A stretch of DNA of 22,428 nucleotides from Gemmatimonadota bacterium (GTDB lineage Bacteria > Latescibacterota > UBA2968 > UBA8231), in the NCBI GenBank assembly GCA_038128265.1, contig JAYPJE010000061.1, positions 1 through 22,428 on the forward strand, in the 5' to 3' direction. This document shows positions 3,995-20,492 of the stretch, one piece after another. The translations under genes and the position numbers were made by a program. Each line of letters starts with the position of its first letter. Within the stretch, counting starts at the first letter, position 1. The notes beneath the pieces were generated by a model, which searched no databases, was not told the DNA's origin, and was given only the letters and a program-made list of their open reading frames with translations.

Positions 3995-4283
3995 CGGCGA
4001 CCTCCCCTGGTATGCGATGTGAGACAAAGATACAACCGTATGCATTTTTCAGCCCGCCTATTTTATAGAATGGTATTAAATATTGTTCTGTTGGGTCGCT
4101 ATGTGTTAACGCGCTACATCCGCAGCTCGCGCCCAGATATGAGCGCAGAAAAAACTTGTGCCGGGTAATGTCTTTTAGTCCGGCGAACTCCTAAATTATC
4201 TGAGCATTTGGCGCCGCGGTTGGGCGATGACTTGCAGTGCCAACAGAACGGCGTTTGTGCTGCTTTTATCAGAGAAATGGATC
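3995..4283. promoter_or_regulatory. AT-rich divergent intergenic/promoter region
   Basis: Non-coding gap between divergent genes with AT-rich tracts such as TTTTATAGAATGGTATTAAATATTG. No confident -35/-10 pair assigned. Confidence 0.4.
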
Positions 4284-6797
4284 ATGTCCAATCTAGCTAA
4301 AGTTCGGGCCGGCTATCGGCGCTTGCGCGAGCGCATATATGAGGCGATGGAAGTTGCCATGCCCGGCGATGTGCTGAGCCGCGTGCTCAATCTGGGCATT
4401 ACGGCGCTTATACTCATTAGTATTGCAGCCTTTGCACTCGGCTTTGTCGCTCGACTGGCGCCCTACAGAGCCTACTTAGACCTAGTCGAAACAGTCTCCG
4501 TTGCTCTATTTACAGCAGAGTATCTGCTGCGACTGTGGTCGTGTGTAGCCTCGGCGCGCCACACGCGCCCATTGATCGGTCGCTTGCGCTTTGCCATGCG
4601 CCCGATGATGCTCATTGATCTGCTCGCCGTACTGCCCTACTATCTGCCATTTTTCTTTTCCCTGGATTTGCGTCTGCTGCGATTGCTGCGTCTGACGCGC
4701 CTGCTGCGCCTGCTTAAACTGGCCCGCTATCTGAAAGAGTCGCCGCCCGACGAGTCGGCCGTTGGTGACCTACTCAACGAATATCAGCGGAGCATGGCGC
4801 AGCAGCGCGGCCAGCTGACGGCGCTGCGCGACGAAAATATGGCGCTGCGCCGCCAGCAAATAGACGGCGCCATTGCCGATATGCGCCGCGCGCAGCAGCT
4901 GTGGCAGGTGCGCCGCCGCCGCAGCACCGTCGAGGGAAGCGAGCGCGAGGCGATTGAAGCGCCCATTGACGTGCTCGCGGCCGCGCTGGCTGAGCAGCAG
5001 TGGCTGGAGCAGGTAGCTCAGCAAAACGGAGCGATCTACGGCCGAGCGGCCGCGCTGTTTGACGAGGCGCCGCACGCAGCTACGCTGGGCGTCGATATAG
5101 GCTGGAAGAACATTCGCAGCTTTACGCGCGTGCCCCTGCAGCGCATTGGCACGCACCACTTTCGCGGGTTGGACGCGCTGCACGGAGCGGCCTTTGCGCG
5201 CTTTAGTCGCTCCTATGCGGAAGAGACGCGTCGCCGACTCGAAGCGGTGCGCACGGCTGTCAGCTACGCGCTGGATCAGGGCGAGCGAGAAATGGGCGGC
5301 AGCTTTTCGCAGGAGATGCGCGTGAGTTTGAATCGCGCGACCAACCGACTGCGAGACTTGGGCGACCCGGTGCGCGCTGCCTGGGATGGACTGATTTGGG
5401 AGCTGCAAGACGAACAGCAAAATCGCATTGAACGCGTGCAGGTAGATATTGCCCGCTACGGCAGCGCGATGTTTTATGTCGGGCGCGCGTGGCGTTCAGT
5501 CGACGTGGGTTCGCGCCGCCTGCGCGAGCGCGCCATTGATCTATTCTACGAATTTCTGCCGCGCGTCCGCGCCGCGCTGCGCACTGCCTATCGGCGGGCT
5601 AGCAGTCAGATTGAACCGGTTCTCTACTGGCTGGGCCTAGTTAAAGCCGAGGCGCGCGAGGTGCTCGAGGCCATCGACCAGGCGCAAATGACGCCGCGTC
5701 AGGATCTGGCCGAGGACTATCGTAGGCACTTCACGTTTGCGCCGTTGGAAAGCGACGAGCTCTTCGTGGGATTTGACGAGGAACTCGCTCTCATCGACCA
5801 GGCCATACAGCGTTGGGAGGATGGATTGACCACGTCGTTTATCGTGCACGGTCAGCGCGGTTCGGGAAAGACGACGCTGCTCAATATTGCGCAGGAGCGT
5901 CTGTTTGAAGATGACCAGATTGTCGTGCGCGCTTCCGTCGAAGAGAAGATCATCGGTGTAGATGCGTTGGTCCATTATCTCAGCAGCCTGCTTCAGCTAG
6001 GCTCAGTCGGTGATGTGGAAGAGTTGGCCCAGCGCCTGCTGCAGGAGCCGCCCAAAGCCATTCTGCTCGAGAGCTGCCACAATCTATTTCTGCGTAAAAT
6101 CGGCGGGTTAGAAGCGATGCGTCACCTGCTGTGGCTCATCGCCCGCACCAACCACCACGTTCTGTGGGGTATATGCATGGGGCGCCATGCGCGCGATTAC
6201 TTGACCAAGTTTCTCGCGCTCGACCAGCTATTTCACTTCGAGGTGCGGATCAGTGCGTGGGAGCCGAACGAGCTGCGGCAGCTGCTGCTTTTGCGCCACG
6301 ACCAGAGCGGCTATAGCCACAGCTTTCTGCTCGATAAGAGCCTAGAGCGCGTGCTGCGCCGTCGGCTGCGCCACTGGCGTAGGGTAGAAGAGCCGGCCGT
6401 ACAGGAAGCCCTCGAGCGGATCTTTTTTGAAGAATTGGCAGAAATTAGCGGCGATAATATCCTCGTCGCGCTCTACTATTGGCTGCGAGCCCTGCAGGCA
6501 AGCGGCCGCGATCACTACGCCGTGCGACCGCTGCGCGAGCTAGACCTTGATCTGGTAAAGTCAATTACCCTTGAACAGGCTTTTATCCTAGCGGCTGTGT
6601 TTCATCACGACAACCTAAGTGCGCAGGAAACGGCGGATATTCTCGATGCCAATGCGATACAGACGCGGCTCATGCTGGAGATATTGGACAACTTTAATAT
6701 TCTGGACTTCGACCAGCAAACGCGGCGCTATCGCGTCAACCCAGTGGTGTTGCACTCCGTGAGCGAAACGCTGCGCGAGCGCAACCTGCTTTACTAA
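4284..6797 (+). CDS. Fusion protein: Kv-type voltage-sensor domain (S1-S4, no pore) + long helical/coiled-coil region + STAND/AAA-like P-loop NTPase + C-terminal winged helix
   Basis: S2 VETVSVALFTAEYLLRLW, S3 IDLLAVLP, S4 RLLRLLRLTRLLRLLKLAR (about 4671-4730). Then hydrophilic helices, FVGFDEEL, Walker A GQRGSGKTT (5850-5876), Walker B-like AILLESCHNL, ISGDN, and a wHTH-like tail LSAQETADILDAN..LEILDNFNIL..RYRVNP. ATG 4284 preferred over 4227. Confidence 0.8.
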   Translation: MSNLAKVRAGYRRLRERIYEAMEVAMPGDVLSRVLNLGITALILISIAAFALGFVARLAPYRAYLDLVETVSVALFTAEYLLRLWSCVASARHTRPLIGRLRFAMRPMMLIDLLAVLPYYLPFFFSLDLRLLRLLRLTRLLRLLKLARYLKESPPDESAVGDLLNEYQRSMAQQRGQLTALRDENMALRRQQIDGAIADMRRAQQLWQVRRRRSTVEGSEREAIEAPIDVLAAALAEQQWLEQVAQQNGAIYGRAAALFDEAPHAATLGVDIGWKNIRSFTRVPLQRIGTHHFRGLDALHGAAFARFSRSYAEETRRRLEAVRTAVSYALDQGEREMGGSFSQEMRVSLNRATNRLRDLGDPVRAAWDGLIWELQDEQQNRIERVQVDIARYGSAMFYVGRAWRSVDVGSRRLRERAIDLFYEFLPRVRAALRTAYRRASSQIEPVLYWLGLVKAEAREVLEAIDQAQMTPRQDLAEDYRRHFTFAPLESDELFVGFDEELALIDQAIQRWEDGLTTSFIVHGQRGSGKTTLLNIAQERLFEDDQIVVRASVEEKIIGVDALVHYLSSLLQLGSVGDVEELAQRLLQEPPKAILLESCHNLFLRKIGGLEAMRHLLWLIARTNHHVLWGICMGRHARDYLTKFLALDQLFHFEVRISAWEPNELRQLLLLRHDQSGYSHSFLLDKSLERVLRRRLRHWRRVEEPAVQEALERIFFEELAEISGDNILVALYYWLRALQASGRDHYAVRPLRELDLDLVKSITLEQAFILAAVFHHDNLSAQETADILDANAIQTRLMLEILDNFNILDFDQQTRRYRVNPVVLHSVSETLRERNLLY

Positions 6798-6810
6798 AAC
6801 GAGATTGCTC

Positions 6811-7638
6811 ATGGAGACGTCCGTGTTGGAGGCGGGAACCGGCGGGCCCATTAATATCACCGTTGGCAAGGTGCTATTGCTGGCCTTTGTGGTGCTCTGT
6901 GCCTACGGGATAAATAGCGGAATAAATTTTCTGCTCGAGCGGCTTGCCGAGCGCCTGCCGGCGCAGCGACTGCTTTTCAAGCGCCTGATTCCCATTCTGC
7001 GGCTCTGCGTCTACGCGTTCACCATATATCTCGGTGTAACGGTTGTCAGTCCACAGCGTGAATCGCTCTACGCTATGCTTGGTTCGATGGCCCTTGCGCT
7101 GGGCCTGGCAGCCAAGGATCTGCTGACGGATATCATCGGTGGTATTGTCGTACTATTTGACCGCTCTTTTCAGGTGGGGGACCGCGTTGCCGTCGGCGGC
7201 TACTACGGCGAAGTCGTTTCTATCGGTTTGCGTTCGACAAAAATTGTTACCGTAGACGATTCGCTTGTTACCGTACCAAACTCAACGGTGCTCTCTTCGG
7301 CTGTATCCAATACCAACGCTGGGGCGATAGACTGCCAGGTCGTAGTCGATATGTATCTCCCGGCAGACTGTGACCTGACACAGGTGGAAACCATTGCGCG
7401 TGAGGCCGTGCTGACTTCCAAGCTGGCCTATTTGAACAAGCCCGTGGTAGTCAACGTGAAGGACGAGTTCAAAGAGACCTACCTGACGCACCTCGTCGTT
7501 AAAGCCTACGTATTTGACACGCGCTACGAGAATGCCTTTGCCGCCGATTTGACGCGCCGTATCAAAAAAGAGTTGGCGCGCCGCGCGCTCGTGCCGAGCG
7601 ATGGGCGTTTTGCCTCGAGTTCAACGTCGGGCATGTAG
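6811..7638 (+). CDS. MscS-family small-conductance mechanosensitive channel
   Basis: Three TM segments, ALALGLAAKDLLTDIIGGI, FQVGDRV, GEVVSIGLRSTKI, VPNS. Starts 13 bp after the VSD-NTPase stop. Confidence 0.92.
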   Translation: METSVLEAGTGGPINITVGKVLLLAFVVLCAYGINSGINFLLERLAERLPAQRLLFKRLIPILRLCVYAFTIYLGVTVVSPQRESLYAMLGSMALALGLAAKDLLTDIIGGIVVLFDRSFQVGDRVAVGGYYGEVVSIGLRSTKIVTVDDSLVTVPNSTVLSSAVSNTNAGAIDCQVVVDMYLPADCDLTQVETIAREAVLTSKLAYLNKPVVVNVKDEFKETYLTHLVVKAYVFDTRYENAFAADLTRRIKKELARRALVPSDGRFASSSTSGM

Positions 7639-7703
7639 AGGGTGAATATCTCGTAAAGGGAGCGAGCCTCGATCGCGCTGTGGGGTGCGCCGTTTCGGCT
7701 GCT

Positions 7704-9662
7704 CTACTCTGCGTCGTATGGCGTGAATTCGGCGGGGTTAATGCCCGTTGTATAGGTGGCAAGCATAATGACTTCGCCGTCGTCTCCCAGATCCCAGTGC
7801 TGCCCTTTGTCTGGGTTGAGAAAGGTGCTGTTGTCGAGACGCAGCCCCAGAGCCGTCTGGCCGCGCGCCTGGGCGGCCGCCTGCACCTGGTCAAAGCGCA
7901 CCGGCCCTTGCAGGCCGCAGTCGGACGCCTTGCAAAAGCAAATCTCTGCTCCACCCGGCCCGAATAGTTCGTCAAAGACCGCGCGCAGTTCACGGCGCAG
8001 CGCCACCTGTGCCAGCATGTGGCTGATGATCTGTGGGCTGACGAGAACTTCCGAGGGGGAGTCGTCAAAAAGCGCCGTATTTTCCGATTCCATCAGTTCG
8101 ACGATGATCGGGGGACCGTCTTCGCCAATCAACTCGCGCAGCAGCAGGTGGCCGAGCGTCGTGCGCGCGTCGGACTCGCCTTCCGACTCTAGCCAATCGC
8201 TGCCGAGTAGGACGATGCCGTCATAGGTGTGCGGCCTCAGACGCGCCAGTTCGTTGGGCGCGGTAAAGTCGCCTTCGTAGTGATGGACGCGAACGGATTG
8301 GGGGTGCACCTCGTGGCGCTCGAGCAGGCGCTGGCGCTCTTCGATGCCGACGTAGGCGAAAATGTCGATGGCGAACTGCTCGCCGGCGTAGCGATCGAAT
8401 TCGCTGAGCAGTGCCGGTGCGCGATGGCTCCATCCTAGCACCAGCAAGCGGCGCTCGTCTCTGCGCTCCTGCTGCGGCGCTGCGGCCGAGACCTCCTGTG
8501 AATGCGGCGTAAAGGTCTGCAGTGCCGTCGTATCGGAAAAAGTGCGCGCGATGAATACCAGTCGATCGCCCTGTTGCACTTCGGTTTCTGGGGGCGGGTT
8601 GAGCAGGGGAGCGAACCCGCCTCCGGCTTCGGGGCGCAGGGCACCTAAAAGCACGGCATCCGGAAAGGCCGGTCCGAGACCGCCCATGCGCTGCCCGACC
8701 AGTGCGTCGCCGCTGCGCACATACACTTCGTTGGTGCGGTCGCCGCTAAGCAATTCGTTAAAGACCTTTGACAGACCTGGATGACGCAGAGTCTGCACAA
8801 TGAGTCGGCTTATAAAGAGGTCGCTGCTAATAATTTCCACGGGGCCAGTATAGGCGCGCACGCCTACCATGACTTTGCGGGGGTCGAATATTTCGGCAAC
8901 GATAAGCGGAATGCGCTCTGCACCGTTGTGTGCGGCGTGACGCGATATTGAGAGCAATGTTTTGATCGTGCGTGCATCGGCTTGCATTGCTCCGTCATAA
9001 AACGAACCGGGCAGGATGACAGCCGCTGCGTTGGCAAAGTCGACGCGGTGCAGGTGGTCTATATCGAGCGGCGTGCCAGTGCGAAATACGATGTGCTGAC
9101 TGTCCCACAGCGGACCGAGGTGGTCGCGCAGTTCCTGCACCCGCTCGGCATTTACCTCTTCGGCGAGCACGGCGATGTTGAGGCGGCGTGCTCCGTAGCG
9201 GCGCAGAAAGCGGTGCAGGCGTTCCTCAGACGACGACAGCAGTTCTTCGATAATGGGGGCCGTGCGGTTGGTCCAACCCAACACCAATACGTGATCGCTC
9301 TGAGTAATGGGGGTCAGCCCGCTTTCCAAGCGTCGCATCGTCTGCGCTAACCACTGCGACATGATGGCGATGAGTGCACCCATAAAGAGCACATAGCCCG
9401 AGATGGTAACAGCGGTCGATACGGTCCGACGCACCAGCCCTTCGTCATCGCCGAGGTAGCCGGGATCGGTGAGGCGTAAAAAGGCCCACCACATCGCTTC
9501 GCCTGCGCTAGAAAACCCGCCCGCAAATTCCATGACGAGCGCGCCGCCGACAGCGGCTATGATCCCGAGCAGCGCGGCGATGAAGAGCAGGCGATAGTGC
9601 GCGCCGCGCAGCAGCATGCGTTCGACGAGAAAGGTAAAGCGGTCTTTCGCTCTCTTTATCAT
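7704..9662 (-). CDS. CASTOR/POLLUX (DMI1)-like cation channel with two RCK domains
   Basis: TM-pore-TM with WWAFLRLTDPGYLGDD filter region. RCK1 HVLVLGW and RCK2 RLLVLGWS. Family motifs ADARTIKTLL, PGLSKVFNELL, SDARTT, MLAQVAL..ELRAVFDELFGPGGAEI. Confidence 0.82.
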   Translation of the reverse strand: MIKRAKDRFTFLVERMLLRGAHYRLLFIAALLGIIAAVGGALVMEFAGGFSSAGEAMWWAFLRLTDPGYLGDDEGLVRRTVSTAVTISGYVLFMGALIAIMSQWLAQTMRRLESGLTPITQSDHVLVLGWTNRTAPIIEELLSSSEERLHRFLRRYGARRLNIAVLAEEVNAERVQELRDHLGPLWDSQHIVFRTGTPLDIDHLHRVDFANAAAVILPGSFYDGAMQADARTIKTLLSISRHAAHNGAERIPLIVAEIFDPRKVMVGVRAYTGPVEIISSDLFISRLIVQTLRHPGLSKVFNELLSGDRTNEVYVRSGDALVGQRMGGLGPAFPDAVLLGALRPEAGGGFAPLLNPPPETEVQQGDRLVFIARTFSDTTALQTFTPHSQEVSAAAPQQERRDERRLLVLGWSHRAPALLSEFDRYAGEQFAIDIFAYVGIEERQRLLERHEVHPQSVRVHHYEGDFTAPNELARLRPHTYDGIVLLGSDWLESEGESDARTTLGHLLLRELIGEDGPPIIVELMESENTALFDDSPSEVLVSPQIISHMLAQVALRRELRAVFDELFGPGGAEICFCKASDCGLQGPVRFDQVQAAAQARGQTALGLRLDNSTFLNPDKGQHWDLGDDGEVIMLATYTTGINPAEFTPYDAE

Positions 9663-9729
9663 GGTTGCACCTTAAAGGCAATGGGCTGAATACGCGCGCG
9701 TTTGCCATACGCCCAGGCGCAGTACCTGA

Positions 9730-11868
9730 CTAAAACCACTTGTCTTTTCGAGCATATCCCAAGCCGAGCTGTAGCTCAGATTTGATCCCCGTCGAGCCGA
9801 CGGCGCTGCTGCGGTGCGCGAAAAAGTTGGCGTCGATTGATAGGTTGAGGTCGCTGCCGAGTCGGACAGTGAGCGAGTTGTACTGCTGCAGCGATAGCGT
9901 GCGCGCTTTGGACGCTCCGACAAATAGCTTGCACGAGGAGCTGAAGCCGTTGCCTTTCCACTGCGCCTTATATTCGGGCAGCAACTCGATACCCAGGTCG
10001 CTTTCGCCGGTGGCTACATCGCGCTCCCAGCCCAGCCCGACGCGCACGTTTCCACGCTGGCCGAGCGAGCGCTGCAGGCCGGCACTGGCGCGCAGCGTTA
10101 GCGGCCGCGGATGCCCCTGCTGCGTGGTCCATACGCTATTGGCTGCCAGCGCGGCAAAGGGTGCCGGACTGCGCGTCTGGCGCGTGTAGGTCATATCGAC
10201 CTGCAGTCGATCGCTCGACTCGCGAAAGCGACCATCGTTGCGCACTTGCCCGTAGTTAGAGCGCACCTGATGTTCGAGGCGTCCGCTGGGCACCTCGCTG
10301 CTCAAGCGCCCGTCAAAGAGGCCGTTCCACGCTAAGGCGCTGCGACCGCTGAGAAAAGATACGTCTTGGTAAGCGGCACCGCCGTCGCCAATTCCGGTCC
10401 AGCTAAGCGCGCCGCTTAGTTTGAAAGAGCTCTTCCAAACCCGCGCACTGTGTTCCCCATGTTCTTTGGCTGGCCCAGTTAGGTGGTCGATGATAAGCTC
10501 TTTGAGGGTGGGGTGTGCGCCGCTGGCATAGACGAGTTCGCGCGGCTTTAGATAGGCGTCACCACCTTCGGCTAAATAGGCGGTCGTGCTAACGCGGTAT
10601 TGTTCGTCTGGGATAAGCTTGCGCCCATTAACCGTTTTGGCGGATGGGTCGTATCCAGCAAAGACGAGGCGCTGGCTCTGCTTGTCGCGCACCGAGCTCT
10701 GCGCACCGAGCTCGACTAGCTGATCGCCGCTGAGGTCTAGTATAACGACGAAGTCGTCGTAGCGAACGAGGCGCCGAACTTCCCCCACGGTAATGCTATC
10801 CTCTAGGGCAAATGCGTTCACGGCACCGCGGTTTATAACGCTGACCTCGCTATGCGCACCGCTACGCATTAGGGACGCAATCCAGGCCGGCGCGTCGTCG
10901 ACGCGTTCGAGTAAACTGCCCACTACAAGGCGACCGGACTCGGCAAAGCGCTGCTGCAGACCGGCAATGGCATCGCCGGTTTCGGGATCAGGGCCGCTGC
11001 TGCCGTCTATGGGCAGCAGCTGGGCGACAAATGTTGTCTCGACTAGCTGATCGCCGCGTCGCACCCACTGCAGCGCAATGCGGCCGACGTGCGTGCCGCC
11101 AGCGGGGGTAGATATCAGGCGCGTCCCCCCGGCTAGCTGCACCTGGTGTAGGGAAGATGCCCGGCTGTCGGCGCGACGAAAACCGCCGGTTATGCACAGG
11201 TCGATGGCGGGAAAGCGCTGGGCCAGTGCCACGGCTTCTTCTTCCTCCATGTGCAAGAGGGCAATGGTATAATCGGCTGAATCGCTCAGTGCGGGCAGCA
11301 ATGTGTCCAGCGCGGCGAAGGGATCGCCCACTTGTAATCCGGAATTGTGCAGTGGGTTGATCAGCTTGGCAGTGGCCGGAGACAGCAGGCCGACGATCGC
11401 AATGCGCAGCCCGTTGCGCTCGATAAGAGTCCAGGGCTGCAGCGGATTGTCGTTGGCCGTTTGCACGTTGGCTGCCAGCAGGGGAAAGGGCAGCTGGCGC
11501 GCGCGCGCGCGCAGCGTATCGAGTCCGTAGTCGAACTCGTGGTTGCCGACGACCATGGCATCGTAGCCGGCATCCGCCATGAGCCGCGCGACTAGTGCGC
11601 CGCGGTCAAAGCGCGCTAGCGAGGAGGCGCCCAGCGCATCGCCGCCGTCGAGCATAAGCGCGCTGGCATTGGCTCTGCGCTCCCGTTTGAGCAGGGCCAG
11701 CAAATGGGCAAAGCCGCCGGAGATCGCGTCTCCACCGCTGCGCGGGAGCAGCTGACCCTCCAAGTCGTTTGTGTGCAAAATAGTCAGCTGGTGAATGTGC
11801 TGTTTGTCGTCGCCATATGCGGTATGGAGTAGCAAAGCCCAAAAAAACACTGTGGCGAACGCGCGCAT
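9730..11868 (-). CDS. Secreted UshA/5'-nucleotidase-like metallophosphoesterase with degenerate metal ligands, fused to a C-terminal putative outer-membrane beta-barrel
   Basis: Signal peptide MRAFATVFFWALLLHTAYG. Motifs TILHTND, LDGGD, VVGNHEFDYG, IALLH. 5'-nucleotidase C-domain (INRG, LSGDQL, YLAEGGDAY). The last roughly 235 aa are alternating amphipathic strands ending in LGLGY...WF. Confidence 0.75.
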   Translation of the reverse strand: MRAFATVFFWALLLHTAYGDDKQHIHQLTILHTNDLEGQLLPRSGGDAISGGFAHLLALLKRERRANASALMLDGGDALGASSLARFDRGALVARLMADAGYDAMVVGNHEFDYGLDTLRARARQLPFPLLAANVQTANDNPLQPWTLIERNGLRIAIVGLLSPATAKLINPLHNSGLQVGDPFAALDTLLPALSDSADYTIALLHMEEEEAVALAQRFPAIDLCITGGFRRADSRASSLHQVQLAGGTRLISTPAGGTHVGRIALQWVRRGDQLVETTFVAQLLPIDGSSGPDPETGDAIAGLQQRFAESGRLVVGSLLERVDDAPAWIASLMRSGAHSEVSVINRGAVNAFALEDSITVGEVRRLVRYDDFVVILDLSGDQLVELGAQSSVRDKQSQRLVFAGYDPSAKTVNGRKLIPDEQYRVSTTAYLAEGGDAYLKPRELVYASGAHPTLKELIIDHLTGPAKEHGEHSARVWKSSFKLSGALSWTGIGDGGAAYQDVSFLSGRSALAWNGLFDGRLSSEVPSGRLEHQVRSNYGQVRNDGRFRESSDRLQVDMTYTRQTRSPAPFAALAANSVWTTQQGHPRPLTLRASAGLQRSLGQRGNVRVGLGWERDVATGESDLGIELLPEYKAQWKGNGFSSSCKLFVGASKARTLSLQQYNSLTVRLGSDLNLSIDANFFAHRSSAVGSTGIKSELQLGLGYARKDKWF

Positions 11869-11880
11869 GATCAACGGGCG

Positions 11881-13326
11881 CTAGTAGGTGATATGGGTGC
11901 GGGCTTCCGCCCAGTGCACATCCATGTCGAGGACGGCGCGGTGCACAGAAGCCGATCTGCTTAGATCTGCGTTGGCCGCGGGCACGGGGTCCTCTCGGGT
12001 GCCGGCGATCCACGGGCGTAGCGCGTCGCCCGACCATACGGCATGCGCTGTTCGATAGCCCAGATAGCCATCGCCGCAGTGACTGCAGCCCCGCGGTTCG
12101 GCCAGCACGGCGCCCTCGCCAAAGAGAGCTTCTGCTTCGCCGGCTGTCGGGCTAGCTTGGCGGCAGTGTTGGCAGAGCTGGCGCATAGAAGTGAATTCGA
12201 CGGCGCCGAGCAGTACGCGTGCAAGGTCCGCCGCGATCACTTCGCTACTCAGCAGGCGCAGCAGGGCATCGCGGATGCCGCTGGCGCTGACAAAGGCGAT
12301 GACCAGAGCGCCGGCGCCGGCCCCTTGGATCAGTGAGCGCACCTGTGTGGGGTCGAGCACGTCTTCGACGAGTATGGCGTTGGGGCGCATATCGAGCGCG
12401 GTGCGCCACAGCGCAGAGAAATCGCCTTCGCTACCCATGTCCAACTGGACGAGCGAATCGTCGCGATACTGAACGGGGCGCTGTAGGCATACGACTAGGC
12501 GGCCCTCGTCGGCAAGGTGCTGGGCAAGGCCCAACTGTTGGCGTTCGGCGTTGGGGCCGGGTGAACCGGCCAAAATGACCAGACCCGGTCGACCAGATAG
12601 AATGGGCTTGAGCGCGTTGGCCTGCGCGGGTAGGTAACCGAGGCCCTCCAATCCGCGGTTCTCCACATCCAGGAAGAAGTGCAGGTGTATCAGCTGGCCC
12701 AATAGGGTGGGCACGGCCGCTAGGCGCAGCTGGTAGCTGACGCCATTGCAGGCGTGTTGGCCGAGCGCTTGACCAATGCCGCCCTCGTTCGGTATGGGAG
12801 CTAGACTGATGACCCATTCGACGAGCTTGTTGGCCAGGACAGCCGGAAAGCGGGCGCGTTCGCGCCGATTACCCTCCTGTCCGGCCAGCAGGCGCATGCC
12901 ATCGTGCAGCGGGTCGAAATACAGGTCGGGGATTGAGTCTAGCAGGGCATCGCGCAAGATGAGGCGTCCGAGTTCTGCTACTAGTGCGTCGGTATTGGCT
13001 GCGTCGATCGTGGGTAGTTCGCCGAGCTGTCCGCGTGCAGTCAGGCGTTCGGTGAAATGCGCTGTGGCTTCTTGGAGGGCGCTGCGCAGCTGCTGGCCCT
13101 CGTCGGCGACGGTGCGCTGATAGCGCTCCAGTTCGGCAGCGGCAAAAAACAGGTGCCGATCGCGCTTTTCGCTCTTGAGCGCCCCGTCCACGACGCGGCG
13201 GTAGACTTCGGCGCGCTGCAGCTGGAGGCGTTTGGCCGCCTCGTCTAGGTCGTAAAATACCTCGCTCTGTGCGGTATCGCCATCGGGCGCCGCTGCGCTT
13301 GTATCGCTTGTTTCCGCTGCAGACAC
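11881..13326 (-). CDS. N-terminal excisionase/MerR-like HTH fused to a PilB/GspE-like secretion ATPase domain with lost catalytic motifs
   Basis: YDLDEAAKRLQLQRAEVYRRVVDGALKS (HTH_17-like). PilB-like IPDLYFDP, LRLAAVPTLLG, GLVILAG, LDMRPNAILVEDV and tetracysteine CQHC...CSHC. GTG start with GAGG RBS. Confidence 0.72.
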   Translation of the reverse strand: MSAAETSDTSAAAPDGDTAQSEVFYDLDEAAKRLQLQRAEVYRRVVDGALKSEKRDRHLFFAAAELERYQRTVADEGQQLRSALQEATAHFTERLTARGQLGELPTIDAANTDALVAELGRLILRDALLDSIPDLYFDPLHDGMRLLAGQEGNRRERARFPAVLANKLVEWVISLAPIPNEGGIGQALGQHACNGVSYQLRLAAVPTLLGQLIHLHFFLDVENRGLEGLGYLPAQANALKPILSGRPGLVILAGSPGPNAERQQLGLAQHLADEGRLVVCLQRPVQYRDDSLVQLDMGSEGDFSALWRTALDMRPNAILVEDVLDPTQVRSLIQGAGAGALVIAFVSASGIRDALLRLLSSEVIAADLARVLLGAVEFTSMRQLCQHCRQASPTAGEAEALFGEGAVLAEPRGCSHCGDGYLGYRTAHAVWSGDALRPWIAGTREDPVPAANADLSRSASVHRAVLDMDVHWAEARTHITY

Positions 13327-13330
13327 GTCG

Positions 13331-14164
13331 TTATTCCTCGCGTTTTAGGTCGATGTCTTTGGCGGGCACGACGACGGCCAAACCGGCTGTCTCAAACTCC
13401 TTGCGCATCTGCGAGATGACGTCGCCAAATATGTTCATCGTGTCGACCGCACTCCACGCTTCCAGCATTACTAACACGCTATCGCCGGTTACATCCGATA
13501 CGGTAAATGTGGGAGCTGGCTCATTGAGCACGGCCTCGTGGCGTTGCAGCACGCCGAGTGCCAGGTCTTCTACCCAGTCGATATCCAATTCGTAGGACAG
13601 GCGCATGGGAACGCGTATGGCGCGCGTATCAAAGGTGGAAAAATTGACTATTTTGTTGCGCCACATCACCGAGTTGGGCACGATAATGTTGACGTTGTCC
13701 AGCGTCACCATGCCGGTATAGGTCATCTTTACTTCCGTGACTCGGCCAATTTGCGCCGGTGGGCCAAACTCGATGAGGTCGCCCTGTTTAAAGGGACGTG
13801 CGGCAAGCATCATAATGCCGGCAAAATAATTGGCGATCGACGTGCGTGCGCCCAGACCGATGATGACGCCGCTAATGCCAAAAGTGGTCAGTAGCGCATC
13901 AACGGGAAAATGTGCCTGCTTGAGAGCGGTTACGTAGCCGACGATCATCACGCCGTAGCGCAGCACCGTGCTCAGGTAGTTCCACAGTATTTCGTCGCCG
14001 CCAAGGCGCTGCATGGCGCGCAGGACGGCGCGTTTGCTCCACAGGCCTGCCCACCAGCTGGCGATGGCGATCAGCGCGCCCAGCATCAGGTCGGGCAGCC
14101 AGCCTAGCAAAGCCGTGGCGTACTCTTCCATGCGCGTAATGACGATGTCGTTGAGACGTTCCAT
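13331..14164 (-). CDS. MscS-family mechanosensitive channel (short, canonical type)
   Basis: GISGVIIGLGARTSIANYFAGI, PFKQGDLIE, GRVTEV, IVPNS. AGGAG RBS upstream. Confidence 0.92.
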   Translation of the reverse strand: MERLNDIVITRMEEYATALLGWLPDLMLGALIAIASWWAGLWSKRAVLRAMQRLGGDEILWNYLSTVLRYGVMIVGYVTALKQAHFPVDALLTTFGISGVIIGLGARTSIANYFAGIMMLAARPFKQGDLIEFGPPAQIGRVTEVKMTYTGMVTLDNVNIIVPNSVMWRNKIVNFSTFDTRAIRVPMRLSYELDIDWVEDLALGVLQRHEAVLNEPAPTFTVSDVTGDSVLVMLEAWSAVDTMNIFGDVISQMRKEFETAGLAVVVPAKDIDLKREE

Positions 14165-14190
14165 TCCCCGCTCCTACCGCCTTTTATTCG

Positions 14191-15117
14191 CTATGCGCTC
14201 TCGCCCATCGCACGAAGGGGCACTCCCTCGGGGTGGTGGTAGATGGTTCGGTGCGGGTAGGCGAATTCGACGGCCCTGCTGTGCGCCACTTCGCGCAGCA
14301 GAATGCGCACGATATCGCTGGAGACGCGCTGGCGATCCTTGGCTAGCGTCTGGTAGCGCAGGCGCGCCATAATACCCGATTCAAACAGCTCGGCGCGCAC
14401 GAACGGTGCCTGGCCAGTATGCTGTATAATGTCTGACGTTACTTGGCGGGCGGCTTCGAGAAAAATGCGCTCGGCTTCGTCAAAATCAGAGGCGTAGGTA
14501 ATGCGAATGGGGACTTCGTCAAGGATGTAGTTCGAGATGTTTGCGTCGCTGTCTTTATCGACCCCTTCCAGCGTGTAGTTGTATATGATCTGGCCGAAAA
14601 GGGTGGCGTTGGGAATGAGCACGGCGCGTCCCGACTTTTCTTCGCCGCCAATGGTGCCGCCGACCTGGTTGAGCAGCACGTGCGTCAGATTGATGTCGAC
14701 CACATCGCCGATAATGCCAGAGATAATGATGCGGTCGCCAATTTTGAAAGGGCGCTTCAGGATAATCATTAGCCAGGCGGCAATGCCCGTTACAGGTGCC
14801 TGCAGCGACCATCCCAATACCATGCCGAGGAAAGCAGCCGATAGCCCTAGCGTTGCTAGGGAGCCGGAAAAGCTGATAATGCCAAAGATGAAGCCAACGG
14901 CCATCCACACGTAGCGATAGATGAATAGAAAGTGCTGGACGTTGTCTTCTTTATAGGCTTTGGTAAGCAGGTAGCGCCGCAGCAGCCGGCGCGAAACTTG
15001 GTAGCCAACCCACAGAAAGACCAGTGTAAAAACGCCGAGCACGGGCGCATCTAACTCGACGTACTCTCCAGCAACGCGGGCGAATTCTTCGTACATGACG
15101 GCTATTTCTTCGTACAT
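14191..15117 (-). CDS. MscS-family mechanosensitive channel
   Basis: LGMVLGWSLQAPVTGIAAWL, RPFKIGDRI, GDVVDINLTH, SGRAVLIPN, EFAYPH. Alternative ATG at 15096 created by a tandem duplication. Confidence 0.9.
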   Translation of the reverse strand: MYEEIAVMYEEFARVAGEYVELDAPVLGVFTLVFLWVGYQVSRRLLRRYLLTKAYKEDNVQHFLFIYRYVWMAVGFIFGIISFSGSLATLGLSAAFLGMVLGWSLQAPVTGIAAWLMIILKRPFKIGDRIIISGIIGDVVDINLTHVLLNQVGGTIGGEEKSGRAVLIPNATLFGQIIYNYTLEGVDKDSDANISNYILDEVPIRITYASDFDEAERIFLEAARQVTSDIIQHTGQAPFVRAELFESGIMARLRYQTLAKDRQRVSSDIVRILLREVAHSRAVEFAYPHRTIYHHPEGVPLRAMGESA

Positions 15118-15126
15118 GACGGCTAT
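15085..15126. repeat. Perfect 21-bp tandem duplication spanning the mscS start codon
   Basis: TTCTTCGTACATGACGGCTAT at 15085-15105 and 15106-15126. Confidence 0.95.
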
Positions 15127-15198
15127 GGACCTTCTCTTCCTATGCTGATGTGCCGCAACTCAGTTGGGCGATGCTTGGGCGTTTCCCGATGCTAAGCT

Positions 15199-15276
15199 TT
15201 CACTAAAATATGCCAAATAGTGAACTCTTGCGACGGCAGAATGGCTTTTTGGGAAAAAATCGAAAAAAATATGCCA
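15199..15276. promoter_or_regulatory. Candidate operator region upstream of the mscS-mscS-HTH/PilB-nucleotidase-CASTOR operon
   Basis: Inverted repeat TTCACTA-N12-TAGTGAA (15199-15224). 11-bp direct repeat AAAATATGCCA at 15205-15215 and 15266-15276, inside an AT-rich intergenic gap. Confidence 0.4.
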
Positions 15277-15431
15277 CGCACTCGCGGAGGTCAGGCCGTC
15301 TAGGATTAGGGTGTATAGGGCGCGGTCATCGGCGGGTTGGATGCCCCCGATTAGGGAGGTGATGGAGGGTTGAGCTCGGGAGAGCCGCCTGCGGCTGATA
15401 GCCGTTTGCCGGGGGTGCAATGCGGCGCGGT

Positions 15432-16403
15432 TTAAGCGCTCGATGGTTCGAGGACCGCTAGGTGAATAACGGCATCGCCGCGGTGCACCAGCGGATCGAT
15501 GGCTTGGCCGACGACCAGGCCACCCATGGGCGCCTTAATTTGGACCGTTTCGTCGCCGAACGGATCGCTGACCTCTCCGAGGATTTGTCCCGTGCGCACC
15601 TTCTCGCCCAGGCCTACGCGCAGGCGCAGAATGCCGCTTTGCCTGGTTCGCACCCAGGTTGCTTGGTGCGAAAGGGCTGCCTCACCGCGCCGGCGCTGGG
15701 GTGCCCGCTTAATCATGCCTAGGTGCGACATGACGCGCAGCACGCCGTCGACCCCTGCGACAATGGCGTCTTCGTTGAAGCGGTGTGGCTCGCCTGCTTC
15801 GTAGAGCAAAATGGGAATGCCGCGTCGGTTGACCTCGCTGCGCAGCGAGCCGCGCGGGGCCGTGCCGTGCATGATAACCGGGGGGGCAAAGGCCTCGGCC
15901 ATGGTCAGCGCTTGTGGGTTGTCTAGGTTGCAGCGAATCTGCGGCAGGTTGACGCGCGGTGGTGCGGCCGTATGCAGGTCAATGGCGTGCGTGCATTTGC
16001 CAACGACTTCTGTCATAAATAGATGCGCCAGACGCCCGGCCAGCGAACCGCGCGCCGAACCGGGGAAAGAGCGGTTTAAATCGCGGCGGTCGGGTAGGTA
16101 GCGCGACTGGTACACAAAGCCGAAAACGTTGATAATCGGCACGGCGATGAGCGTCCCATCTATTTTGTCGGGCTGCAGTTTTGCCAGTATGCGGCGCACG
16201 ATTTCAATGCCGTTGATTTCGTCGCCGTGCAGCGCCGCGCTTACAAAGAGGCGCGGGCCGGGTTTTTTACCGCGCAGGACCTCGACGGGCATAGAAAGCT
16301 GGTCGTGCGTGTAAAGGCGACCGACGGGCAGGTTGATTTTAACCCGTTCGCCTGGCTCAATCGTGGTGCCGCCTATACACAGGCGTTGGTGCGCAGAGTC
16401 CAT
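15432..16403 (-). CDS. Succinylglutamate desuccinylase/aspartoacylase (AstE/AspA, M14-like Zn carboxypeptidase) family protein
   Basis: HGDEING, DRRDLNRSFPG, IDLHT, YEAG, plus a C-terminal barrel-sandwich hybrid domain. Starts 12 bp downstream of rimK. Confidence 0.9.
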   Translation of the reverse strand: MDSAHQRLCIGGTTIEPGERVKINLPVGRLYTHDQLSMPVEVLRGKKPGPRLFVSAALHGDEINGIEIVRRILAKLQPDKIDGTLIAVPIINVFGFVYQSRYLPDRRDLNRSFPGSARGSLAGRLAHLFMTEVVGKCTHAIDLHTAAPPRVNLPQIRCNLDNPQALTMAEAFAPPVIMHGTAPRGSLRSEVNRRGIPILLYEAGEPHRFNEDAIVAGVDGVLRVMSHLGMIKRAPQRRRGEAALSHQATWVRTRQSGILRLRVGLGEKVRTGQILGEVSDPFGDETVQIKAPMGGLVVGQAIDPLVHRGDAVIHLAVLEPSSA

Positions 16404-16415
16404 ATCGTTGCGTTT

Positions 16416-17321
16416 TTATCCCTTGCCGCGCGTTCGGGTCTTGCCTGGTTGGGCATTCTTTTCGATAAAGTCGATGATATTACCCGCTACATCCAAGCCG
16501 GTCGTCTGCTCAATGCCCTCCAGCCCAGGCGAAGAGTTAACCTCCATTACGACGGGTCCGTGATTCGAGCGCAAAATGTCGACACCGGCTACGTTGAGGC
16601 CCATCGTTTTTGCCGCGCGCACGGCGGTGGAACGCTCTTCGGGGGTGAGTCTGATTTTCGTCGCTGTGCCGCCGCGGTGCAGGTTGGAGCGAAACTCGCC
16701 CTGAGCACCCTGGCGCATCATCGCGGCGACGACGCGGCCACCCACGACAAAGCAGCGGATATCGGCCCCGCCCGCTTCCTTGATGAACTCCTGTACGAGT
16801 ATGTTGGCGTCGAGGCCGCGAAACGCATCGATGACCGATTCAGCGGCCTTTTTGGTTTCGGCCAGCACCACGCCAATGCCCTGTGTGCCTTCCAGTAGCT
16901 TGATGACCAGCGGCGCGCCACCCACCAGGTTGATGACGCCCTGGGTATCTTTAGTCGACCGGGCGAAGGCCGTAACTGGCAGGCCGATGCCGTCGCGCGC
17001 CAGCAGCTGCAGCGAGCGCAGCTTGTCGCGCGCGCGCGTTATGGCAACGGACTCGTTTACAGAGAACACGCCCATCATCTCAAATTGGCGGACTACAGCC
17101 GTGCCGTAAAACGTATACGATGCGGCGATGCGGGGTATGATGGCCTCAAAACCCTCCAGCGATTCACCTTGAAAGAGCACGGCGGGGCGGTGGGAGGTAA
17201 TGTTCATATAGCAGCGTCGATAGTCGACGACCTGCACTTCGTGTCCACGCTCTTCGCCCGCCTCTTTTAATCTGGTTGTCGAATAGAGAGATCCCTTGGA
17301 AGAGAGTATGGCAATTTTCAT
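16416..17321 (-). CDS. rimK: Ribosomal protein S6--L-glutamate ligase / poly-alpha-glutamate synthase (ATP-grasp)
   Basis: [80 protein letters not shown]; 301 aa. Confidence 0.96.
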
Positions 17322-17600
17322 TGCTGCTTCCTTTCATTGCGAAGCGCTGGATCGGTTTTCTAGCGATCGTAGCCTTACGAGCACTCGACGCTCGGATGAG
17401 GCCACACAAATATAGAGAAAAACGACTATTTTATGAGTGGGGCCAGCACATTTGTTGGCCGCCCACGTTATCACATATTTTTGTGGCGTGCGCACGAAAG
17501 TCGTATTTGTTGGGCCGACGGGTTATGCGGCTTTTGCCGTCCGATGCAATAGCACGGAACGAGAGCCGCCCACGCGCGGCGTTTACGTGGAGGGGAGCCA
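17322..17600. promoter_or_regulatory. Divergent promoter region between rimK and the mscS-kch pair
   Basis: Non-coding, relatively AT-rich gap. Short dyads GGCCAGCA-CATT-TGTTGGCC and CACA-TATTTT-TGTG. Strong RBS GGAGGGGAG before TTG 17601. Confidence 0.4.
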
Positions 17601-18461
17601 TTGCAAACAGTGCTGCAGCTGATGGATCGCTATCAGGGTTTGGACAACGCGCTGGCCAGCGCGCTGCTCCTGCTCGGCGTGTTGTTACTTCGTCAGGTGT
17701 TGGTCCGTTGGGTGCGGCGATCAGCCATCTACTCGTCCGATCTGCGCCGGCGCTGGGTAGTGCAGATTCGCAACGGCTGCTTCTTGCTGCTCGTTCTGGG
17801 GCTGGTCTTTGTATGGGCGACCGAACTGCGCACGTTTGCCCTGTCGCTGGCTGCTTTTATCGTCGCGTTCGTGCTGTCGACCAAGGAGCTTATCTCCTGT
17901 CTGACGGGTAGCTTTCTGAAGATTAGCTCGCGCGCCTTTGCCGTGGGCGATCGCATTGAGGTTGGAGGAATGCGCGGCGACGTCGTCGACCAGACGCTGC
18001 TGGTGACGCGCATTATGGAAGTCGGTCCAGCGCCGCACGCCCACTTTTACACGGGTAAAATTATCGCCCTGCCCAATAGCCTGTTTCTCACCGCTCCGAT
18101 TATCAACTTTAGCCTGACGTCCAACTATGTGCTGCACGCCTTTTGCGTTCCACTAGCCGATTCCACCGATTGGCAGCGTGCCGAAGAGCATATGCAGAGC
18201 GCCTGTGCAGAGGTCTGTGCCCCGTTTCTCGACGCGGCGCGCCAGACCTTAAACCGCCAGGCTCAACTAGAGGAGCTCGGTGTGAAGGCAGTAGAACCGA
18301 GCACCGCGCTCGTTGTGCAGGAAGCAGGTAGGATTGACTTAGCCGTACGGGTGCCGCTTCCGGGCGAGCAGGTCGGTCGCTGCGAGCAGGATATAATCCG
18401 TCGTTTTTTACAGCTGCAGGCCGCTGCTGCTGCGCGCGCTGGTGCAAGGGAAGGAGCGTGA
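17601..18461 (+). CDS. MscS-family mechanosensitive channel
   Basis: TM segments, STKELISCLTGSF, FAVGDRIEVGGMRGDVVD, TGKIIALPNSLFLT. TTG start with strong RBS. Confidence 0.88.
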   Translation: MQTVLQLMDRYQGLDNALASALLLLGVLLLRQVLVRWVRRSAIYSSDLRRRWVVQIRNGCFLLLVLGLVFVWATELRTFALSLAAFIVAFVLSTKELISCLTGSFLKISSRAFAVGDRIEVGGMRGDVVDQTLLVTRIMEVGPAPHAHFYTGKIIALPNSLFLTAPIINFSLTSNYVLHAFCVPLADSTDWQRAEEHMQSACAEVCAPFLDAARQTLNRQAQLEELGVKAVEPSTALVVQEAGRIDLAVRVPLPGEQVGRCEQDIIRRFLQLQAAAAARAGAREGA

Positions 18462-18464
18462 TGT

Positions 18465-19607
18465 ATGGAATGGCGTAGCCGGTTCAAAAGTGGCGTCCCG
18501 TACGCGGTAGCAACCGTCGTCTTGCTCAACGGTTTTCTCGCGCTGGCAGCAGGACTGTCGCGCTTTTTTCAGCTTGATTTATACTTCGAAAAAGAGCTGG
18601 AAGAAGTCGGCGAACTCATCGATGTGACGCCGGACTTGCAGGCAGAAGGATTCGTATCCATTCTGCTCGGGGCCCTGTTTATAGCGCTGGGCAAGGGGTT
18701 ATTTGAGCGGCGGCGTTCCTCCTGGCAAAAGAGCATCGCCGTGCTGGCCGTGCAGTTGCTCAACGCATTGGTGCAGGGCATGCCGCTCCGCACCGTTGGT
18801 CTTTCGGTCGTCCTGTTGGTCGTGCTGCTGCTGCTGCGTCGCGACTTTACCAACGTGCCCGTGCGCCGCAGAATGGGGTACGGGGAAGTGGTCGCCGCGC
18901 TCTCGGTCATTTTTGCCCTCACATACGGCATCGTTGGCTCGTACTTGATGCGCGGCGAATTTAGCGGAATCGAGGGTTGGCTGGATGCGGCCTACTTTAC
19001 CTTTGTGACGTTTAGCACCGTCGGCTACGGCGATCTGCTGCCGCAGTCGACGAATGCGCGCATATTTACCATGTCGATGATCCTGATCGGACTGAGCGCT
19101 TTTGCCACATCGGTGACGGTTTTTTTGGGGCCGTTGCTCGAGGAGCGCATGAAAGGAGTTTTTTCGGTTATGAGCAAGTTCCAGAAAACGGTGGATCACG
19201 TCGTCGTCTGCGGCTTTACCAGTGTTTCCGAAAGTATTTTTGACGAGCTGCGCGCGCGCAACACGCCTTTTTTGGTCATCGAAGAAGACGAGAACAAGGT
19301 CATGCTTTTAAAGGGGTTAGACTATGATGTGCTGCACGGAGATGCGACCAACAAGCTAACCTTAGAGCGCTCTAATTTGCCGCACGCTGCTGCGGTCATT
19401 GCCGCTACCGATTCCGATGCGACCAATACGCTTATTGCGCTGACGGCTAGAGCACTGCGCGACGGGGATGGAGGACACTCTTTCCGCATCATCGTGCGCG
19501 TCGAAGACGAAGAGAATATCGACAAGGTTCAGCGCATTGGAGTTGATGAGGTGATCTCTCCGTCGACGCTGGGTGGGCGCATGATGGCGGAGAGGGCGCT
19601 AGGCTGA
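18465..19607 (+). CDS. kch: Kch-like 6TM potassium channel with C-terminal RCK (TrkA-N) domain
   Basis: K+ filter FSTVGYGD. Similarity by eye to E. coli Kch (VLLNG, LLLLRRDF, FATSVTVFLGPLL, DHVVVCG). RCK motifs GDAT, ATDSDATN, VDEVISP. Confidence 0.88.
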   Translation: MEWRSRFKSGVPYAVATVVLLNGFLALAAGLSRFFQLDLYFEKELEEVGELIDVTPDLQAEGFVSILLGALFIALGKGLFERRRSSWQKSIAVLAVQLLNALVQGMPLRTVGLSVVLLVVLLLLRRDFTNVPVRRRMGYGEVVAALSVIFALTYGIVGSYLMRGEFSGIEGWLDAAYFTFVTFSTVGYGDLLPQSTNARIFTMSMILIGLSAFATSVTVFLGPLLEERMKGVFSVMSKFQKTVDHVVVCGFTSVSESIFDELRARNTPFLVIEEDENKVMLLKGLDYDVLHGDATNKLTLERSNLPHAAAVIAATDSDATNTLIALTARALRDGDGGHSFRIIVRVEDEENIDKVQRIGVDEVISPSTLGGRMMAERALG

Positions 19608-19671
19608 AAGCCCCTGTTTAGCCGTAGTGGTTGCATTTGTAAATGCGTCACAGCCACCGTATGTTTGCTCG

Positions 19672-19687
19672 AAATAACCGGTTATTT
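19672..19687. promoter_or_regulatory. Perfect 16-bp palindrome, candidate repressor operator (LacI-family-like central CG)
   Basis: AAATAACCGGTTATTT is its own reverse complement and lies 25 bp upstream of ATG 19713. Confidence 0.55.
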
Positions 19688-19712
19688 AATCGTTCCAAAG
19701 CGAGGCAGCCCC

Positions 19713-20492
19713 ATGCAGGCTACAGGCGATTTTTCGGAAGACTTGCAGCATCTAAATGAGCAGGGTTTTCTGCTGATTAAAGGCGCGTTAGACGCTGAGC
19801 GGGTGGCGCGATGGCAGGATGTGCTCTACGGCATGTACGAGCGCGGCGAATACGAAATAGACAACAGCGTTGGTAATGTGGCCTTTGAGAAACTGCTCGC
19901 CCTGCAGCCGGAATTGGCCGGCGAACTGATCGGCCACGATTCCGTTGCCACCTATTTGAAGGCCGTGCTCGGCAAGCAGTGCCAGCTGCGCTCGCTGCGC
20001 GCCCACGTCAATCCGCGCGCCTACCTGCAGGAATGGCATATGGACTTCTACGACTACTACTATCAGCGAGAAAAGGCCGAAGGTGCGCAGTCGCTGGTGG
20101 GCGTGTGCATGAATACGACGTTCTACTTGACCGACAATCCGCCCGAACGCGGTCGCCTGACCTTTCTAAAAGACTACTTCAAACAGCCCATTCCCAATGA
20201 AATGATTCAACACATGGGCTATACGGATGACCGCAGCAATCCCTTTCAGGCCTGGTGCGATGGCCAGGAGCACGTCGACTTGCACCCCGAGGCCGGCGAT
20301 GCCGTGCTGTTTTACAGCCACGTGCCGCACCAGGGAGCCAAGGTCGGCGAAGATCCCGTGGGGCGGCCGCGGGCCAACATCGTGCTGCACTACCAGCAGA
20401 ATCCCATGTTTCCCGGTATCCACTTTGTCAGCAATCCACAGTTTACGCTGGATACGCTGGGCTATGCTGCCACGTTTCCCTTTGCCAACTGA
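19713..20492 (+). CDS. PhyH-family Fe(II)/2OG dioxygenase
   Basis: LNEQGFLLIKGAL, WHMD (HxD), AGDAVLFYSHVPHQG...R. GAGG RBS before ATG 19713. Confidence 0.85.
   Translation: MQATGDFSEDLQHLNEQGFLLIKGALDAERVARWQDVLYGMYERGEYEIDNSVGNVAFEKLLALQPELAGELIGHDSVATYLKAVLGKQCQLRSLRAHVNPRAYLQEWHMDFYDYYYQREKAEGAQSLVGVCMNTTFYLTDNPPERGRLTFLKDYFKQPIPNEMIQHMGYTDDRSNPFQAWCDGQEHVDLHPEAGDAVLFYSHVPHQGAKVGEDPVGRPRANIVLHYQQNPMFPGIHFVSNPQFTLDTLGYAATFPFAN

Follow-up and report, generated by a model that had tools for sequence, protein, structure and literature searches.

A modular island of MscS, potassium-channel and RimK-AstE genes in a Latescibacterota genome

Channels of the MscS family are treated as stand-alone valves, the reason why bacteria carry so many paralogues of them is an open question, and to our knowledge no dedicated ATPase subunit of MscS has been described. 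Within this family, MscCG of Corynebacterium has a large C-terminal extension with an extra transmembrane (TM) segment; voltage-sensor proteins that lack a pore include the VSP/TPTE phosphatases, Hv1 and SLC9C1. Other described systems are built around the glutamate ligase RimK, to which we take the orthology group (KO) K05844 to correspond. RimK makes free poly-alpha-glutamate and is stimulated by RimB, with osmotic effects discussed (PMC11957791), hypo-osmotic survival of Pseudomonas aeruginosa is governed by RimB-like Rlo proteases and an ATP-grasp enzyme (PMC12239564), and K05844, a mechanosensitive-channel KO and a Mg-uptake KO are commoner in brackish than in marine genomes (PMC10219603). 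Here we describe a locus that holds both MscS and RimK genes, at positions 4284-19607 of a 22,428-nucleotide stretch (the window) from a Gemmatimonadota bacterium placed by GTDB in the Latescibacterota (GenBank assembly GCA_038128265.1, contig JAYPJE010000061.1). With moderate confidence we read it as a modular island for ion and osmotic homeostasis, in which two MscS paralogues have likely regulatory cytoplasmic partners and in which RimK and AstE likely store and release a glutamate polymer.

The window is the entire contig C61 of the host genome (G000; 4.29 Mb, 102 contigs, 84% complete). The island holds 11 open reading frames (ORFs), each of which matches in Pfam and NCBIfam the family that a first-pass annotation of this DNA had named for it (Ion_trans with AAA_16, four MS_channel_2nd, Castor_Poll_mid, TrkA_N with Ion_trans_2, RimK, AstE_AspA_cat, T2SSE with HTH_17, and 5'-nucleotidase), and its count of seven channel-related genes out of eleven is borne out as well. 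Along the window the genes are as follows.

4284-6797, plus strand: pore-less voltage-sensor domain (VSD; S1-S4), helical linker and STAND/AAA-like P-loop NTPase with a probable C-terminal winged helix (837 aa; Pfam Ion_trans, AAA_16)
6805-7638, plus strand: MscS1, from the MscS clade dedicated to the NTPase (277 aa; separated by 7 bp from the NTPase gene upstream)
7704-9662, minus strand: CASTOR/POLLUX-like RCK-gated cation channel (652 aa; Pfam Castor_Poll_mid; filter-like TDPG motif)
9730-11874, minus strand: UshA-like 5'-nucleotidase domain with a C-terminal barrel-like domain (714 aa; two metal-ligand His missing; C-terminal Phe)
11881-13326, minus strand: HTH_17 with a PilB/GspE-like pseudo-ATPase (481 aa; Walker A Lys lost, Zn tetracysteine present)
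13331-14164, minus strand: MscS2, encoded directly ahead of its fixed PilB-like partner (277 aa)
14191-15117, minus strand: MscS3 (308 aa)
15432-16403, minus strand: AstE/AspA-family Zn peptidase/deacylase (323 aa; HGDE, H and E motifs intact)
16416-17321, minus strand: RimK alpha-L-glutamate ligase (301 aa; NCBIfam PRK10446)
17601-18461, plus strand: MscS4 (286 aa)
18465-19607, plus strand: Kch-like K+ channel with a TVGYG filter and TrkA_N/RCK (380 aa)

These 11 genes are not one operon. They form three orientation blocks, with NTPase-mscS1 on the plus strand (4284-7638), rimK-astE and mscS3-mscS2-pilB-like-nucleotidase-CASTOR on the minus strand (17321-7704), and mscS4-kch on the plus strand again (17601-19607); a 314-bp gap splits the minus block between astE and mscS3. 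All four MscS proteins combine TM helices with an MS_channel_2nd beta-domain that scores above the Pfam cut-off, and the four PF00924 matches found in this 84% complete, 4.29-Mb genome all lie inside the window.

MscS genes and their P-loop partners

The pairing of the NTPase gene with an MscS gene is the tightest link of the whole finding. Among 47 loci examined, an MscS-family gene adjoins the NTPase gene in 40 of the 41 that are evaluable, lying directly downstream in 39 and directly upstream in one, with none in the remaining locus; left out of this count are five loci that end less than 250 bp from the NTPase gene and one spurious match of 26 aa (L073), and the loci are partly redundant or congeneric (L046 and L055 lie on the same contig, and L057-L060 are near-identical). 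In the reverse direction, the MscS1 clade occurs in 20 of the 168 genomes that make up the comparison set for the phylum and follows the NTPase gene in all 20, the NTPase itself being patchily distributed (22/168). The pair is also found in Novosphingobium, on a replicon without other island genes, and in metagenome contigs. The partner proteins of the MscS1 clade have conserved C-terminal motifs of their own, six MscS partners of the NTPase are short proteins made up of the beta-domain only, and the distances within the two families rise together (rho 0.61 over 17 pairs, a value inflated by kinship). In a complex prediction, three MscS1 cytoplasmic domains together with the NTPase domain reach a score of 0.64, but a control also reached 0.48, so that the score does not decide for or against a complex. 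The NTPase may control the adjoining MscS1.

The architecture of the NTPase protein is derived from sequence evidence. Its N-terminus (residues ~33-151) is a VSD with segments S1-S4 that matches KCNQ voltage sensors; S4 carries 8 R/K in the window protein and 5-9 in 14 homologues, arranged in R-x-x repeats, and acidic counter-charges are present in S2 and S3. No pore helices, filter motif or hydrophobic segment is found after residue ~150, so that the protein is not a channel: of the first-pass description of this gene as channel-related, the voltage sensor is real and the pore is absent. In the NTPase domain Walker A (GQRGSGKT) is intact, as in 104/146 relatives, and Walker B carries a Glu, as in 139/150 family members. 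The closest natural solved structures, ORC4/5, are weak matches, and relatives of the NTPase give weak nSTAND matches in Pfam.

A word-based search with the full VSD-NTPase returned five close full-length matches and Kv channels, and it was HMMER with the NTPase domain that revealed the family, which comprises 2462 clusters (50% identity) at E<=1e-3; a scan of the contig collection gave one locus only. Named members come from records of Gemmatimonadota, Acidobacteriota and KSB1, and Atlas clusters suggest members in Bacteroidota, Balneolota and Acidobacteriota, as leads only. The N-terminus of the family varies. Among the 150 members listed, nine have a VSD there; four of the 46 scanned have a Na+/H+ exchanger instead, and 109 of the 130 long members have no predicted TM segment. 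G000 also encodes a separate ORF of ~300 aa (G000:C44:21908-22324), part of which is 44% identical to the VSD of the window protein; ORFs like it occur in most relatives and may be the Kv-type source of the fused sensor.

Several further arrangements of the gene were noted. A Na+/H+ exchanger is fused to the same NTPase in proteins of ~1500 aa (P0126, P0137, P0144, P0151), and at L063:6614-11140 a 1508-aa exchanger-NTPase is followed by MscS. In L036-L040 and L053, a second paralogue of the NTPase, of ~1000 aa, has as its partner a short MscS beta-domain protein of ~175 aa. On two unrelated metagenome contigs (L065:11144-16564 and L070), NTPase-MscS lies near a GluR0-like glutamate-binding K+ channel, a patatin and a second MscS, with CorA in L065. 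A gene that we take from its N-terminal sequence to be groEL-like stands at the mscS1/CASTOR junction in G001 (L022:7386-9008) and near the NTPase gene in G005 (L026:15858-16883) and G101 (L049:18646-19998).

A second fixed partnership is that of mscS2. Fifteen of the 168 genomes carry the PilB-like gene, and in 13 of them mscS2 lies directly upstream of it, the remaining two matches being at contig ends; the pair usually follows kch. With 13 close homologues, the PilB-like family is small. Its window member has an N-terminal HTH_17 domain and retains the Zn tetracysteine, and the Walker A of PilF (GPTGSGKS) aligns with GSPGPNAE, the Walker A lysine being gone in 10/10 full-length family members. 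An active PilB/GspE secretion or pilus ATPase is ruled out by this loss and by the neighbours, which are channels. In G002 the PilB-like gene is split across two frames (L024:10909-12352).

A bolder claim is that the NTPase-MscS pair represents a widespread and so far undescribed class of ATPase-regulated MscS channels, with the STAND-like NTPase obligate to its own MscS clade and fed by swappable inputs, so that in this cell a voltage-sensing ATPase would gate MscS in trans, amid an osmotically silent glutamate polymer handled by RimK and AstE; we regard it as possible, if doubtful. The near-invariant pair, in a family of ~2,400 clusters at 50% identity, suggests that different MscS paralogues may each answer to a cytoplasmic regulator of their own. 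An ATPase driven by a pore-less sensor would, if it exists, mean that bacteria as well as eukaryotes, with their phosphatases, have voltage-sensing enzymes.

The rimK-astE module

The window RimK scores 461.8 bits over its full length, compared with a PRK10446 equivalog cut-off of 331, and AstE keeps the Zn and catalytic motifs (HGDE, H, E) and likely trims glutamate. In the phylum set rimK is present in 22/168 genomes, 20 of them with the rimB/astE-linked type. An MscS gene lies within 10 kb of rimK in 16 of these 20 genomes, where 0.32 would be expected, and 37 of their 79 MscS genes fall within the same distance; of the four genomes without a nearby MscS gene, three have rimK on short contigs or at contig ends, and G087 is a genuine exception. 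No MscS lies near either of the two divergent rimK genes, whose loci lack astE. In most relatives rimB adjoins rimK, and no rimA was seen. The recurrence of the cluster is not due to chance.

The gene-neighbourhood check that the first-pass annotation had proposed gives a like result beyond the phylum, with genes for MscS and for Mg2+ transporters close to rimK-astE in Vibrionaceae and in a cyanobacterium. Of the 44 astE records in the plasmid collection 14 were opened, and nine of these have rimK beside astE (Vibrionaceae, Acaryochloris, Phaeobacter). MscS lies within 8 kb in six of the nine (two Salinivibrio, Acaryochloris, two Vibrio and one Photobacterium, the last a weak match) and in none of the five astE loci that lack the rimK pair; MgtE, CorA or ZntB is near five of the nine. 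One outside locus reads rimK-astE-rimB-mgtE-corA-mscS-usp on a single strand, and on a Vibrio plasmid (L139, NZ_AP027047.1) rimK-astE-rimB-mscS stands within ~3.5 kb of an ectABC-aspartate kinase cluster. In one Acaryochloris record (L148) rimK is split. In an unrooted RimK tree, family f1 is divided between a clade that holds f2 and Acaryochloris and a clade that holds f4 and Phaeobacter; both clades carry channels, which argues that the rimK-channel link is not one recent inheritance. Since the rimK-astE-MscS link extends to culturable marine bacteria, free poly-alpha-glutamate as an osmotic buffer is directly testable.

A different account of this module is modification of ribosomal protein S6 by RimK, as known from Pseudomonas, with RimK a mere passenger in a general stress island and the channels clustered by transfer and selection with no metabolic link to glutamate. 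Ribosome modification by RimK-RimB requires a C-terminal Glu of RpsF as acceptor. Such a Glu is present in 4/9 rimK genomes, the RpsF of G000 and of G002 ending Asp-Glu, whereas the tail ends in Gln or Ser in the other 5/9. The full equivalog status of RimK fits this account, as do the conflict of the RimK tree with taxonomy, which is consistent with transfer, and the report of rim genes near mobile elements (PMC11957791). Against it stand the link to MscS and Mg transporters, which is common to the two RimK clades and extends to other phyla, and the constant astE partner, which in the rim operon contexts given in PMC10092738 does not belong to the Pseudomonas rim operon. On balance we consider S6 modification an unlikely explanation of the module.

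Modularity, regulation and competing explanations

The first-pass annotation was ready to give up its proposal if the components were never syntenic elsewhere; in fact the island families recur together, in shuffled order, in five genera of three families of the phylum, and the island has likely been shuffled horizontally. In G031 and G034 nearly the full set lies on one strand (rimB-rimK-astE-NTPase-mscS-CASTOR-mscS-mscS-nucleotidase). Other genera rearrange and exchange members and add an amino-acid permease, a Na/Pi cotransporter, CNNM, MgtE, NhaA, a TM-helix MscS-like protein, a TLC-like transporter, PspA and glutamate dehydrogenase, and CorA and a GluR0-like channel are further ion-related neighbours in relatives' loci. 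The modules also occur apart: CASTOR is found without rimK or the NTPase in eight fetched loci, seven of g19 (G033, G036, G114, G109, G115, G116 and G029) and G162 of another genus, and the g14 and g22 loci, which lack CASTOR and the NTPase, have Kch and MscS-PilB-like genes. This separation favours cooperating units that share an island over a single machine.

It was as one machine that the locus had originally been seen, with all 11 genes tying glutamate polymerisation, or an MscCG-like export, to tension, voltage and K+ flux. The near-complete single-strand arrangement of G031 and G034 speaks for such an assembly, as does the fact that every MscS gene of G000 lies in the window; the separation of the modules in many genomes and the three orientation blocks speak against it. 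Glutamate export of the MscCG type is not supported either, the MscS proteins being core channels of 277-308 aa without a large extra domain. One integrated system is thus quite unlikely and too strong a claim, while the osmotic part of the proposal is plausible and has outside support (PMC12239564 and PMC10219603).

A sigma-54 consensus lies ahead of the gene that heads the rimB-rimK-astE run in 11 of 12 relatives' loci, compared with 0.05 in shuffles and 12/12 in the pspA control; the sites are usually accompanied by a divergent sigma-54 response regulator. In L027:3131-6018 and 11 other loci, two proteins lead the run, one of 545 aa that contains four repeats of the MscS 'conserved TM helix' and one of 405 aa that matches nothing in Pfam; they sit behind a perfect sigma-54 consensus, and neither is in the window. 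G005 has a sigma-54-like site upstream of its VSD-NTPase gene (L026), and a KaiC-like ATPase, a small response regulator, a histidine kinase and a sigma-54 regulator lie inside its island (L026:6953-11880). In the window, scans for sigma-70 promoters and terminators gave no excess over shuffles, and an Rfam scan gave 0 matches.

The other island genes conform to their families to different degrees. The CASTOR-like protein matches plant DMI1/CASTOR in the PDB at E 5e-26, contains the tandem RCK gating ring, and has plasmid-collection matches in 8 records. The Kch-like protein has the TVGYG filter and RCK of a K+ channel and scores below the Kch equivalog cut-off. In the nucleotidase family the GD and GNH metal-ligand motifs are mostly retained, whereas the DxH His is missing in 35/35 sequences that cover the site and the GHxH His in 36/36, a loss that rules out an active UshA/CD73 5'-nucleotidase; judged from its sequence, the nucleotidase-barrel protein is likely catalytically degenerate and located in the outer membrane, its barrel-like C-terminal domain giving a weak DUF3078 match and an Atlas lead of 0.83.

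The island has the GC and GC3 of its host, and its gene order is kept in G001 and G002, which argues against mis-assembly. The flanks (419-3732 and 19665-22426) encode a heparinase II/III-like protein (weak), an acetamidase, two PhyH dioxygenases, a carbon-nitrogen hydrolase and a Gfo/Idh/MocA oxidoreductase, with synteny confined to the genus; a same-strand phyH gene starts only 57 bp past the final cluster gene, so that the right border is defined by function and not by spacing. Divergent from the NTPase gene is a 119-aa ORF (3686-4045, minus strand) with no family match that is conserved in G001 and G002. A sponge-symbiont lifestyle of the relatives was considered and rejected, its basis being a bin name which probably refers to a program.

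Two further explanations concern single modules. Plant CASTOR is a Ca2+-regulated cation channel, and RimK could accordingly serve divalent-cation homeostasis, with poly-glutamate buffering Mg2+ or Ca2+ alongside MgtE, CorA, CNNM and the CASTOR-like channel and with MscS in a secondary role; the transporters near five of the nine outside rimK-astE loci and the CNNM and MgtE of the phylum loci fit this proposal, but no Mg transporter is found in the window (Pfam) and MscS is the more constant neighbour, so that we rate it as very unlikely. An anti-phage or conflict system, in which a STAND sensor would open the channel and depolarise an infected cell, combines a known defence design (STAND sensor plus membrane effector) with the STAND-like P-loop, the weak nSTAND matches of relatives and the patchy occurrence, but was rejected as highly improbable, given 0 PADLOC matches for 9 window proteins, no C-terminal repeat sensor domain in the NTPase (Pfam), neighbours that are ion transporters rather than defence genes, and fused domains for ion sensing or ion transport.

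Under the modular reading that we prefer, the following mechanism can be proposed, in which every biochemical coupling and the osmotic trigger are inferred and go beyond what gene content, domain anatomy, catalytic residues, adjacency and the sigma-54 consensus of relatives establish. By docking on the cytoplasmic cage of MscS1, the STAND-like NTPase would modulate channel gating in a manner that depends on ATP. The N-terminus of the NTPase is exchangeable, being a voltage sensor here and a Na+/H+ exchanger or soluble helical domains elsewhere, so that membrane potential would be the input in this cell. The HTH-PilB pseudo-ATPase would act as a nucleotide-independent scaffold or regulator of MscS2. 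Upon a drop in salinity, RimK would polymerise glutamate, which is the counter-ion to K+, to poly-alpha-glutamate, which would lower osmolarity without loss of carbon or nitrogen, while MscS and the K+/cation channels (Kch, CASTOR-like) would vent ions, K+ and other solutes leaving or entering; upon upshock, AstE, together with RimB where present, would free glutamate again.

A number of observations weigh against this reading. With the atypical Walker B and a Walker A that is intact in only 104/146 relatives, ATP hydrolysis by the NTPase is uncertain, and in one locus (L033:9225-13216, G035) the VSD-NTPase is N-terminally cut beside a transposase/insertion-sequence-like ORF. A RimB profile search of G000 (84% complete) gave no match, none of the island channels accompanies the rimK triad of G087, and the RpsF tail of G000 resembles the known P. 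fluorescens substrate (PMC11957791), which leaves room for ribosome modification. Outside the phylum, three of the nine rimK-astE loci are without MscS, and the rimK-MscS cases are limited to Vibrionaceae and Acaryochloris; inside it, the island-bearing genomes are kin (five genera). No sigma-54 site was found at the window's four block heads, which, together with the three orientation blocks, makes co-regulation within the window a conjecture.

Comparison with known systems

In the literature searched, outside subscription journals and supplements, we found no description of the NTPase-MscS pair, of a VSD-NTPase fusion or of a rimK-astE-MscS linkage, and nothing relevant on CASTOR with MscS or on mechanosensitive channels in Latescibacterota; a 2009 comparative paper on ATP-grasp neighbourhoods may touch on some of them. 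Compared with the RimK-RimB(-RimA) systems of Pseudomonas and E. coli RimK (PMC10092738 and PMC11957791), the island has an equivalog RimK, with rimB adjacent in most relatives, but differs in its constant AstE/AspA partner, its channel neighbours and an RpsF tail that is not conserved; rimA is not seen, and rimB was not found in G000. The closest functional precedent is RloABC of P. aeruginosa (PMC12239564), which likewise joins an ATP-grasp enzyme to a protease that cuts poly-glutamate and bears on hypo-osmotic survival. As described there, however, RloABC relies on secreted (retropepsin) proteases and a 7TM inactive transglutaminase, whereas the island has a true RimK, an AstE-type enzyme and MscS and K+ channels, and neither RloA-like nor RloB-like genes are in the window (Pfam/NCBIfam, profile search).

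The island MscS proteins share the TM2-TM3 and beta-domain core of E. coli MscS (PDB 2oau, 6pwo), from which the locus differs in having four paralogues in one island, two of them with fixed P-loop partner genes; unlike MscCG, they are 277-308 aa long with TM segments only in the N-terminal half, and no MscCG-type model matched. The CASTOR-like and Kch-like proteins resemble CASTOR/POLLUX/DMI1 (PDB 6o6j, 7vm8) in the RCK gating ring and E. coli Kch in the TVGYG filter with RCK, the former being a bacterial homologue with a TDPG filter-like motif. As in VSP/TPTE, Hv1 and SLC9C1, a pore-less S1-S4 sensor is joined to a cytoplasmic effector, but the protein is bacterial and the effector is a STAND-like NTPase. 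With STAND/Avs NTPases and Orc/Cdc6-type AAA+ proteins this NTPase shares the P-loop and a probable winged helix (weak ORC4/5 and nSTAND matches), and it differs in its C-terminal position, its Walker B Glu, and in that no repeat sensor is seen and PADLOC gives no match. Taken together, the parts belong to known families and the whole is a variant osmoadaptation island, of which one module could be categorically new.

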